A stretch of 64,000 bases of DNA from a virus, in IMG/VR virus record IMGVR_UViG_3300036852_000134, positions 1 through 64,000 of that record; one strand, written 5' to 3'. The notes under the pieces were generated by a model. The model was not told the origin of the DNA and searched no databases. It worked only from the letters and a program-made list of their open reading frames with translations. Position numbers and translations under genes: made by a program. Each line of letters begins with the position of its first letter. The first letter of the stretch is position 1. Of the stretch, positions 22,621 through 24,382 are shown in pieces.

Positions 22621-23681
22621 GCGGCCTCGCGTTTCTCAACGAGGCCGATTATATCAACTACCTGCTGCGCTGCCACTGTGGCACAGCCTAGTTTCCCACT
22701 GAATATCCGGATGATGTTGTCGCCGATCAACTCGACTAAGGTTGGACGCCCATCGTCCGCATCTCGACCGGGAAGCACGGCGCGAACCGTCCACATAGAC
22801 CCCACGAATTCAGCATCCCTGAGACCCGGAATGAATTTCACCCCAGCCTCGATGAAATCCTGGACCCTTGTGTGCGCAGGGTTAACCACCAGCCCGCAAT
22901 TCAGGTAGCCCCTCAGTTGCCGAGGAATCGCTGGCCGGAGCCCGACGTTTGCATGGTGGATGGCATGCTTCACATGCCCCATGACATGCAGGTCGGTATT
23001 CCCGTAAGGGTCTAGGCAGCAGAACTCCCCGTCCATGACGACGATGCCGATGCCGCGGAACTTGGAAGGCATCCGCAGCAAGGGCTTCTCGACCACCTCG
23101 AACTGAAACGGCTCCACTCTTGCACCGAGGTCGAAAGCAACCGCGTTGGTGGAAGCGTAGGCGGCGACAACGATTGCATCGAACTTTGAACGCAAGGATC
23201 GTGTTGCCGACTTCAGGTGGACCGTTACACCGGACTCTTGCAGGCGCTGCGCAACGATTGCACGCAAGCGTTGGAGGTCGAGCCGCGCCTCGTCCACCGA
23301 GAGCACCACGTTGACAGCATCCGCGTTGATCATCGTCGGGCTGGCGTCCACGAAGGACAACCCGTGACGCATGCAGAAGGCGACATACTCCAGGCCTGAA
23401 ACCTTGCTGCCTTCCTTGGCGATGGCGTAGTAGTGGCGGCCACCGTCGATGATGGCGTCACCGTACTCAGCACGGAAAGAGGTGAGAGCGGCCTGGCATT
23501 CAGCGACGGTGGCCGCGCTCCTTGGGTAGTGGAATCCCTCATGGGTTCTGGCCTGGTTCACTGCCGATGCCGCGCCCATGACCTCATTGGGCTCGTAGAG
23601 GTGAACATCATGGCCAGCGCGAGCGAGATGGACGGCGGCGGTGCATCCAAAGAGGCCGCCCCCAGCAACACAGACCCGCAT
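22617..23681 (-). CDS. FAD-dependent oxidoreductase (DAO-like family)
   Basis: MRVCVAGGGLFG Rossmann motif, ASAVNQARTHEGFHYPRS, C-terminal FSGK. Confidence 0.85.
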   Translation of the reverse strand: MRVCVAGGGLFGCTAAVHLARAGHDVHLYEPNEVMGAASAVNQARTHEGFHYPRSAATVAECQAALTSFRAEYGDAIIDGGRHYYAIAKEGSKVSGLEYVAFCMRHGLSFVDASPTMINADAVNVVLSVDEARLDLQRLRAIVAQRLQESGVTVHLKSATRSLRSKFDAIVVAAYASTNAVAFDLGARVEPFQFEVVEKPLLRMPSKFRGIGIVVMDGEFCCLDPYGNTDLHVMGHVKHAIHHANVGLRPAIPRQLRGYLNCGLVVNPAHTRVQDFIEAGVKFIPGLRDAEFVGSMWTVRAVLPGRDADDGRPTLVELIGDNIIRIFSGKLGCATVAAQQVVDIIGLVEKREAA

Positions 23682-24382
23682 CACCACTTCCACTGCGGCA
23701 TGTCGAACAGGCAACTCTCACGGTTGGCGACCACCTTGATGCCGCGCTTCATCGCCTCATGGATGAAATACTGGATGCCGGGGCGCTGGTAGACGTACTC
23801 ATTCTCAGCAGCCTGCATGATGCCCCACAGGCCGATCATTGGAATGCCATCAGTCTCTGCGTCCACGATCGACTTCGCGAACATATAGGCGATGCTGCTG
23901 GTGAACTGGCACGGATCGAAGATGCCGTCATGGTTCGGGATCTCGGCGATCCTTTCGCCAACAATGGCCCCATCTGGTCCCTGGACCTTCACCTTCTGGA
24001 GCGTGGACGTGCCCCTGAGTTCCTTCTCGGGATAGAGCCGACCGCCCTTGAAGGACTTAAGCGCCTTCTGGTCTCGCAGCCACACGAACGGCTGCTCACT
24101 CAGATACTTGAGGTATGGGAAGGGCCGGCTCGGGTCCTCCAAGGGAAGGTGGACTTCGAAGACCTCGTCAACGCGCGGCAGCGCCGTCGCGTACTTGCTC
24201 ATTCCGTATGGCGTATTATCCGGAGAGCACGCCAGAATCTTCCAGCTCGCGTCTCCGTAGGGAGCAGCATCCTTAGTCGTCGGATTGCTGCCGACAATGG
24301 CCAAGCCACGAACGGCTGTCTTGGGTGCGGCCGGGAGGACATCCCCACCGGCCGCCTTGGTCTCTATGAGATCATCAAGCAT
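23681..24382 (-). CDS. Putative glycosyltransferase (sialyltransferase/Maf-like GT-A variant)
   Basis: LAIVGSNP..., FTSSIAYM and IGLWGI pattern, similar to the IxGxGPS / TSG / IYLxGxD motifs of GT29/GT42/Maf; start coupled to the upstream DTG protein. Confidence 0.5.
   Translation of the reverse strand: MLDDLIETKAAGGDVLPAAPKTAVRGLAIVGSNPTTKDAAPYGDASWKILACSPDNTPYGMSKYATALPRVDEVFEVHLPLEDPSRPFPYLKYLSEQPFVWLRDQKALKSFKGGRLYPEKELRGTSTLQKVKVQGPDGAIVGERIAEIPNHDGIFDPCQFTSSIAYMFAKSIVDAETDGIPMIGLWGIMQAAENEYVYQRPGIQYFIHEAMKRGIKVVANRESCLFDMPQWKW

Follow-up and report, generated by a model that had tools for sequence, protein, structure and literature searches.

Virion glycosylation by phage-encoded enzymes has a precedent in mycobacteriophages, whose glycosyltransferases reportedly modify the phage's own structural proteins in the host cytoplasm; the enzymes described by Freeman et al. 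in 2023 are said to be ordinary GT-A/GT-B types that act on capsid and tail-tube C-termini. To our knowledge, no Maf-like enzyme and no three-residue tag has been described for mycobacteriophage virion glycosylation. Here we analyze a 64,000-nucleotide stretch of viral DNA (positions 1 to 64,000 of IMG/VR virus record IMGVR_UViG_3300036852_000134, hereafter the window) that encodes tail-type proteins rich in the tripeptide Asp-Thr-Gly (DTG) and, translationally coupled to one of them within an enzyme cassette, a 233-residue protein (hereafter the target) whose predicted fold resembles those of Maf flagellin glycosyltransferases and sialyltransferases. We give odds of roughly one in four to the reading that the target is a minimal, soluble, sequon-directed Maf-type O-glycosyltransferase that attaches a host-made acidic keto-sugar to the DTG Thr as the linking sugar, the sugar being either 3-deoxy-D-manno-oct-2-ulosonic acid (Kdo) or a nonulosonic acid.

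Among described enzymes, Maf of Magnetospirillum magneticum (5MU5, PF01973) has a central domain that superposes on the target. The two share a cytoplasmic, soluble character, genes beside those of presumed acceptor proteins, and an N-terminal G-S-x-P-S/T and a hydrophobic strand ending in Gly at equivalent places; the wider phage family is, like maf genes, accompanied by NeuB and a synthetase for sugars activated with cytidine monophosphate (CMP). They differ in architecture, the target having one domain and Maf three within about 650 residues. The target also fails the PF01973 gathering score (34.6 bits), gives a non-significant profile–profile match, and carries Met in place of Maf's invariant G-x-D Asp, in a phage without a sugar pathway. 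Its presumed acceptors are tail proteins with an exact D-T-G, whereas Maf has no known sequon (PMC11339370).

The GT42 sialyltransferases CstII and CstI of Campylobacter jejuni and 9C08 of Pasteurella multocida are, like the target, single-domain proteins (about 230–290 residues) of matching fold, and the profile of the target's family, through TSS, A.AI, G-x-D and EY, hits no PDB sequences but those of GT42 enzymes. The E-values of those matches are 0.22–1.7, however, and the acceptors that GT42 enzymes sialylate are Gal or Sia residues of lipooligosaccharide, not proteins. Further differences are a β-hairpin insert of 24 residues (126–149) in the target and its lack of the G-I-D Asp. The GT42 catalytic base is His188 in CstII and His202 in CstI, and no target residue is identifiable as the His188 equivalent (PMC4202792). 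The pyrophosphokinases MptE and TPK have the same Rossmann-like fold as the target and share their Pfam family with Maf (PF01973), but they show no sequence match to the target, whose context is glycosylation and not cofactor synthesis and in which the acidic residue of G-x-D is absent.

In gene content, the Aeromonas polar-flagellin islands (Maf-1 with Fgi) are analogous to the phage locus, which has a Maf-like gene, one to four GT-A glycosyltransferases, one or two methyltransferases and a P-loop kinase-like gene. In Aeromonas, pseudaminic acid (Pse) is the linking sugar on flagellin Ser/Thr, and flagellar glycosylation island (FGI) glycosyltransferases extend it to a heptasaccharide with methylated and phosphorylated HexNAc (PMC7874193). 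The phage cassette differs in having no pse genes, in its virion tail targets and in its apparent direction by a tag (DTG), and the enzymes are not orthologous. The target does not match the PF01973 profile and has neither the G-x-D Asp nor the three-domain architecture; no catalytic His could be located in it. It does not qualify for PF01973 or GT42 and belongs instead to an unnamed phage family. A literature search, which was not exhaustive, returned no description of this family, of phage Maf-like enzymes or of a DTG tag.

Fold and family of the target

The AlphaFold2 model of the target, built from a 41-sequence alignment, has a predicted local distance difference test score (pLDDT) of 89.7 and a predicted template modeling score (pTM) of 0.84. 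We compared it with 48,161 solved chains using VIA, a structure search independent of Foldseek. The first-ranked chain was Maf 5MU5 (Z 10.1, root-mean-square deviation (rmsd) 3.4, 166 aligned residues), with model residues 23–226 lying on chain residues 271–499. CstI 2P56 scored Z 9.0 (rmsd 3.9, 162 aligned residues), MptE pyrophosphokinase (HPPK) 8SD5 and TPK1 9HJC each scored Z 8.3, SteA reached Z 7.8, and four mammalian GT29 sialyltransferases ranged from Z 7.0 to 6.1. Foldseek placed CstII 1RO8_B first (probability 0.99, E 2.4e-3), and among the predicted viral structures of BFVD, DUF115/MptE-like phage proteins match after the family's own members. Every fold list was headed by one structural superfamily, with Z values just moderately above background. 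Judged by the model, the target very probably belongs to this Maf/GT42/GT29/MptE superfamily. The sequence-only reading had proposed a Foldseek comparison of a predicted structure; CstII emerged as its top match, and a fold unrelated to GT-A is ruled out by the Maf, CstI, CstII and GT29 matches.

The target reading frame is a genuine gene and not a chance one, because it has many homologues, a conserved start and invariant columns. Homologues number 171 in 90%-identity clusters (E ≤ 1e-3), and phmmer finds 558 representatives at 50%. Over 41 sequences of 48–88% identity, the alignment keeps the N-terminal MLD and has 24 invariant columns, including G31, S32, C52, S53, N56, R70, E76, H78 and R103 and, further along, S162, G187, Q190, E195, Q199 and G202. 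The motifs from which a sialyltransferase or Maf-like function had been proposed are all present in the order claimed (L27-AIVGSNP-34, F160-TSSIAYM-167 and I183-GLWGI-188).

These sequences form part of a wider 'IGLWG' family, marked by G-S/T-x-P-S, C-S-P, F-E-x-H, F-T-S-S, I-G-L-W-G, E-Y-x-x-Q-R-P-G and E-S-x-L. The hidden Markov model of its alignment (A6) matches the target at E 7.5e-45 in two segments, residues 27–122 and 154–229. The family has no Pfam or PHROG entry and occurs almost exclusively on viral contigs. Its only occurrence among 185,579 species genomes was on one short contig of a metagenome-assembled genome, for which reason an origin in prophages or cells was rejected. PDB sequence searches with the target alone and with its profile (A1) returned nothing at E ≤ 10. 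With the family profile A6, the six best PDB matches were all GT42 sialyltransferases, at non-significant E-values over 35–45 residues, and the alignment lays t-S-S...A.AI...iGlwGvD...EY on CstII residues 130–163. These matches are consistent with the fold result, although insignificant on their own. A Pfam scan of 108 family representatives at E ≤ 1 did not match PF01973; a distant relative in locus L012 matches it at E 0.16, and the Pfam-bearing atlas cluster nearest to the family is PF01973 MptE-like.

The Asp-Thr-Gly tag and its cassette

Five tail-type proteins encoded in the window contain 37 DTG against 1.76 expected, a 21-fold enrichment (Table 1), and the proteome as a whole, by crude gene calls, contains 38 against 6.9 expected. 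Gly is the next residue for 37 of the 47 DT dipeptides. Nineteen different 9-mer codon strings encode DTG, which led us to reject a DNA motif as the unit that is repeated. In the nozzle homologues of four cassette phages we counted 13–17 DTG each, and 11 DTG columns are common to all five sequences within variable flanks. The major capsid protein and a pectate-lyase-fold tail spike have none, unlike the neighboring tail proteins. Nor is there any DTG in tail tubular proteins A and B of Burkholderia phage KL4. L012 is a relative of 44% GC whose family member is distant (31%) and whose capsid and tail tubular protein A are 49% and 44% identical to those of the window; at the window's aligned DTG sites, its tail tubular protein A reads SLS, DPS and DTS. 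Since these homologues do without DTG at aligned sites, we rejected a structural requirement of tail proteins as its cause. The DTG tag is real, selected at the protein level and specific to the clade that carries the cassette, as shown by its enrichment, varied codons, conserved columns and the DTG-free KL4 and L012 controls.

All cassette loci encode DTG-rich reading frames, with up to 35 DTG in a 911-residue fiber-like protein. Two fiber-like proteins that lack a PHROG match (L002 3216-5258 and L006 37-2772, with 32 and 35 DTG) have many of them at the start of 11-residue repeats (DTGLRTHISDV DTGLHDTIADL...), where DTG could be structural as well as a tag.

The target gene directly follows that of one tagged protein, here called DTG288. 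On the minus strand, the sequence cTGATGc at 24385-24380 holds both the TGA of the DTG288 reading frame and the ATG of the target, with one base in common; the target TGA overlaps the ATG of a flavin adenine dinucleotide (FAD)-dependent oxidoreductase gene (23681) by one base in the same way, so that TGATG stands at both target ends. The claims that the target start overlaps the stop of a gene with six DTG, and that the target is coupled to a DTG protein, are thus borne out: DTG288 has exactly six, and the coupling is conserved across cassette loci. Three of the six are invariant (D78-T-G, D167-T-G and the C-terminal PRDTGL). A model of DTG288, with a pLDDT of only 60, suggests a concanavalin-A-like lectin/GH16 jelly-roll (VIA Z 13.1–12 to GH16 and legume-lectin folds), and all six DTG fall in its loops or termini. 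DTG288 was also considered as the major capsid protein and rejected, given its jelly-roll and a separate capsid gene (Table 1). In L012, the gene just before the family member (1268-1717) encodes a Thr/Ser-rich protein of 149 residues, whose N-terminus resembles that of DTG288 (IHGRRLGLSQDDVLL versus IHRRALGLTNDDQVL, pairwise E 6e-4); this protein and the family member may, by sequence, be a conserved partner pair.

The window is part of an 82,864-bp complete virus record with direct terminal repeats, and its late module is of the T7-like podovirus type (small and large terminase, portal, scaffold, major capsid, tail tubular proteins A and B, internal virion proteins). Around the target, the order DTG288, target, (FAD oxidoreductase), one to four GT-A genes, methyltransferase (one or two in related cassettes), P-loop protein and 164-residue protein is kept in 10 IMG/VR loci at 38–60% identity. 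When loci were anchored on the P-loop gene, 12 of the 14 with at least 8 kb of upstream DNA held the target; of the two exceptions, L057 runs off its contig, and no target lies within 10 kb in L061. Of the cassettes recovered through the P-loop gene, L061 and L062 (the latter with less than 5 kb upstream) diverge most, and neither has a family member. Each instead encodes, 0.5–1.4 kb from cassette genes, a PF01973 MptE-like protein of about 200 residues (L061 6698-7309, E 2e-5; L062 5700-6308, E 6e-5; both below the Pfam cut-off), so that by sequence the target family looks to have been replaced by an analogous MptE-like enzyme. In L061, the MptE-like gene adjoins that of a 270-residue protein with a faint KpsC/KpsS-type Capsule_synth match (E 0.003). 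Taken together, the conserved order and the tag suggest that the cassette probably decorates DTG-tagged tail proteins.

Other insertions and neighbors vary. An HNH endonuclease gene separates the GT-A and methyltransferase genes of the window, and related loci have zero to three insertions at differing places, which makes the cassette a hot spot for mobile endonucleases. Homologues of the 139-residue cassette protein are sometimes encoded directly upstream of the DTG288 gene. A second methyltransferase gene, dependent on S-adenosylmethionine (SAM) like that of the cassette, lies between the DTG288 and spike genes and has no homologue in related loci at E < 1e-4. In L046, an 852-residue B12-binding radical SAM protein with a LAGLIDADG-like insert (371-2929) is encoded directly upstream of the cassette.

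Table 1. Features of the window, in window coordinates, with DTG counts where they were made
Feature	Coordinates	Strand	Length (aa)	Evidence and remarks
Nozzle (tail tubular protein B)	5489-8890	-	1133	phrog_376, E 3e-114; 20 DTG, 1.0 expected
Tail tubular protein A	8897-9541	-	214	phrog_394; 3 DTG, 0.1 expected
Protein beside the major capsid gene	10097-10408	-	103	phrog_18004 (function unknown); 3 DTG
Major capsid protein	10422-11255			0 DTG
Last gene of the cassette	18051-18545	-	164	Conserved in all loci; possibly ParB/Srx-like (weak phrog_498, E 8e-4)
P-loop kinase-like protein	18908-19579	-		Walker A GPPGSGKST; weak AAA_33 match; 27 related loci
Conserved cassette protein	19576-19995	-	139	Start estimated at MARPKS; homologues at 38-51% identity; no family match
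SAM-dependent methyltransferase	20007-20678	-		PF13649/PF08241; conserved in loci
HNH homing endonuclease inside the cassette	20682-21494	-		phrog_374, E 4.8e-67; presence variable among relatives
GT-A-type glycosyltransferase	21470-22189	-		phrog_1962, E 2.3e-11; one to four paralogues in related cassettes
Cassette protein	22182-22499	-	105	No family match; homologue 66% identical in L005/L039
FAD-dependent oxidoreductase (DAO family)	22617-23681	-		PF01266, E 3.8e-16; after the target in 8 of 12 target-holding loci
Target	23681-24382	-	233	Single domain; ATG 24382-24380, TGA 23683-23681
DTG288	24382-25248	-	288	Six DTG, 0.48 expected; precedes the target directly in most cassette loci
Second SAM methyltransferase	25546-26460	+
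Pectate-lyase-fold tail spike	26441-29464		1007	0 DTG
Beta-rich protein	29738-30130	-	130	5 DTG; homologues in cassette phages carry 4-6

The GT-A genes of the cassette bring in another possible initiator. In such a scheme, a GT-A paralogue would begin the glycan at the DTG Thr, and the target would be a sialyltransferase-like enzyme that caps or branches it and does not itself read DTG. The one to four paralogues per cassette are potential initiators, nonulosonic acids are usually terminal sugars, and the closest solved relatives other than Maf (CstI, CstII, the PmST3-like 9C08 and GT29) all sialylate glycans and not proteins (PMC4202792). Against this, the best structural match is Maf, a protein O-transferase, and the target gene adjoins and is translationally coupled to that of the DTG protein, not to GT-A genes. 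In many phages, NeuB and a CMP synthetase also accompany the family member, and direct transfer in one step is a possibility there; in Aeromonas, a nonulosonic acid is the linking sugar (PMC7874193). We regard a capping or branching role as unlikely, though as the strongest of the alternatives.

CMP-sugar genes in the wider phage family

We next considered which genes accompany the wider family. Viral contigs were collected through a back-translated IGLWGVDM DNA pattern, and 75 of the 80 loci obtained contained a family member. For co-occurrence we used 32 whole viral records of at least 15 kb (G046–G077; loci L066–L145), which carry the Asp-containing form of the family. The cytidylyltransferase family PF02348 was present in 18 of the 32 and NeuB in 20, and among the eight records at least 90% complete each was present in seven. 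By comparison, none of 41 random viral records of similar size had PF02348 (Fisher p 9e-9). KdsA was found in none of the 32, and a phage-encoded Kdo pathway was accordingly rejected.

Physical links point the same way. The longer relatives of the family are either intein-bearing forms or a cytidylyltransferase fusion, P0252, in which an N-terminal PF02348 domain (E 3.9e-27; closest NCBIfam models of KdsB and PseF types) is joined to a target-type domain within 492 residues; that domain is 30% identical to the target over residues 27–226. Two complete genomes, G055 and G048, each carry two family paralogues, the second and divergent one abutting the cytidylyltransferase gene. Because of this fusion, the NeuB/PF02348 co-occurrence and the abutting paralogue, the wider family is the obvious transferase for phage-made CMP-activated nonulosonic acid. 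Five complete NeuB-carrying genomes, examined with crude gene calls, showed no DTG-like tripeptide outlier, and we rejected the idea that NeuB-carrying phages have a tripeptide tag of their own.

The sole homologue from a cultured phage, at 27% identity, is encoded by Microcystis phage Mvi-Yong1342-1 (PP496355.1 34781-35584, which is L001 5908-6711). It is labeled 'type 11 methyltransferase', has no Pfam methyltransferase match and is likely misannotated.

A sialyltransferase or Maf-like assignment of the CMP-sugar type is therefore well supported for the family and less sure for the target's subfamily. The fold, the family profile, the fusion and the co-occurrence uphold what the sequence-only reading had proposed for this protein; the PF01973 profile, the comparison with Maf by hhalign, the G-x-D Asp and the phage sugar pathway do not. 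The target's subfamily is a variant of the family that lacks a phage-encoded sugar pathway and is joined to the tag-associated cassette.

The replaced aspartate and the proposed mechanism

Asp at the G-x-D position is invariant in Maf (D154 of alignment A3) and near-invariant in the phage family outside the target's subfamily. Within that subfamily, the residue here is Met in 31 sequences, Leu in 7, Val in 1, His in 1 and Asp in none (I183-GLWGIM-189 in the target); an invariant Gln directly follows the replaced Asp, and the remaining motifs are all kept. The loss of both this Asp and the nonulosonic-acid genes would be compatible with a new function. The D-less subfamily may have switched donor or reaction: it could act as an MptE/TPK-type pyrophosphokinase or phosphotransferase, or as a transferase whose donor is not a CMP-sugar and comes from the FAD oxidoreductase, P-loop kinase and methyltransferases of the cassette. 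In the fold ranking, MptE HPPK, TPK1 and SteA come shortly after Maf and CstI; among atlas clusters with a Pfam family, the nearest is MptE-like; and the cassette encodes both a kinase-like protein and an oxidoreductase with no assigned substrate. Yet the PDB sequence matches are all to sialyltransferases and none to kinases, and TSS, EY, QRPG and ESxL are held in common with the NeuB-associated subfamilies. In a pyrophosphokinase, moreover, the Asp presumably helps to bind metal and ATP, and its loss would argue against a kinase. We consider changed chemistry of this kind quite unlikely.

A further clue to the site comes from insertions in the target's own subfamily. Five members (P0121, P0269, P0270, P0271 and P0143) carry an in-frame insert of 246–267 residues at NEY | C[AV]AP...GFASHN | T[YF]QRPG, which corresponds to Y196|V197 of the target (window about 23795-23797). 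We call these inserts inteins on the basis of their Cys...His-Asn|Thr boundaries, the Pfam match to LAGLIDADG being weak and present in one of them. The Tyr at the insertion site is the residue aligned to CstII Tyr162, and the insert precedes YQRPG, thus interrupting the motif that is best conserved in the whole family; a conserved E222-S223 (ESxL motif) lies about 25 residues past the same Tyr. Inteins are typically located in catalytic sites. Their placement here argues, at the level of sequence, that the EY/YQRPG site is functionally critical and still under selection. Y196, E76, H78, S162 and E222 are candidate functional residues.

The same evidence bears on the idea that the target is catalytically dead and serves as an adaptor, a DTG-protein chaperone or a specificity factor for the GT-A enzymes, comparable to GlfM with Maf-2. 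The loss of an otherwise near-invariant Asp and the tight coupling to the DTG288 gene would fit such a role, and a distinct specificity factor can be required in Maf systems (bioRxiv 10.1101/2023.12.03.569772). However, the polar residues S32, N56, R70, E76, H78, R103, S162, Q190, E195 and Q199 are among the 24 columns that stay invariant even where identity falls to 48%. What replaces the Asp is uniform (Met, Leu or Val) and has an invariant Gln next to it, which suggests a site remodeled and not decayed, and inteins persist at EY|xYQRPG within this very subfamily. A dead adaptor is improbable.

Several observations weigh against a tag-directed, Maf-type target. As to relationship, the predicted fold is common to the pyrophosphokinases MptE and TPK, and the target matches nothing in Pfam (E ≤ 0.1), PHROGs or NCBIfam. 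Comparison of the target alignments (A1 and A2) with a Maf central-domain alignment from 14 genomes (A3) by hhalign gave probabilities of 0.2–5%, which are not significant, and picked out the G-S-x-P-S and IGLWG segments only; the link between the target and Maf/GT42 is thus one of fold and context, the E-values of the PDB sequence matches being as given above. As to catalysis, the subfamily has the Asp replacement, and its only invariant His, H78, lies elsewhere in the sequence, with no His aligned to CstII base His188. NeuB and PF02348 cytidylyltransferase are absent from the window phage and four relatives, so that the functional evidence is strongest for other subfamilies, where the 32 records are probably kin and hence not independent. 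As to the acceptor, GT42 and GT29 enzymes act on glycans and not on proteins, and the cassette GT-A enzymes could be the initiators instead of the target. Phages with distant family members (L001, L012–L014) show no DTG enrichment in their available DNA. Tag, cassette and subfamily co-occur in a single clade, and the tag-reading enzyme is therefore not singled out among them. Maf enzymes, finally, offer no known sequon as a precedent (PMC11339370).

Weighing these points, we lean slightly towards the target being an active transferase of a CMP-activated acidic keto-sugar. The chain in which it places that sugar directly on the DTG Thr as the linking sugar, for cassette enzymes to extend, has its precedent in the Pse-linked, methylated and phosphorylated heptasaccharide of Aeromonas flagellin (PMC7874193) and is held tentatively, at less than even odds. 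The modeled fold, the family membership, the family's ties to NeuB and CMP-synthetase genes, the gene coupling and the DTG enrichment are results of the analysis; which donor and acceptor are used, and in what sequence the steps run, we infer as follows. The target would be a stripped-down catalytic domain, related at the level of fold to the Maf flagellin glycosyltransferase and the GT42/GT29 sialyltransferases, soluble and probably metal-independent. It would be expressed with the late genes, as the second in the translationally coupled run of DTG protein, target and FAD oxidoreductase. Its donor would be of the CMP-activated acidic keto-sugar type (nonulosonic acid or Kdo) and, because the phage makes no such sugar, supplied by the host as CMP-Kdo or a host nonulosonic acid; the Maf of Clostridium botulinum accepts CMP-Kdo (PMC11339370). 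Working in the cytoplasm before or during tail assembly, the enzyme would attach the linking sugar directly to the DTG Thr; extension and tailoring by the GT-A, methyl- and phospho-transferases would follow. The proteins decorated would be the nozzle, the adaptor, two small proteins and the lectin-fold DTG288.

The target is a small, soluble candidate tag reader, for which a test would need no more than two or three co-expressed genes, and because Maf enzymes currently have no usable sequon, it is a possible tool for glyco-engineering. If the proposed reading is true, phages have miniaturized a flagellin-type sugar transferase and often carry it together with their own pathway for a sialic-acid-like sugar. 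In one clade, this mini-Maf would then have been rewired to serve a cassette directed at an exact Asp-Thr-Gly tag that tail proteins carry. Among enzymes of the Maf/sialyltransferase fold, the target would be the first with a specific sequon, and its reaction would be the founding step of an undescribed virion-coating system.

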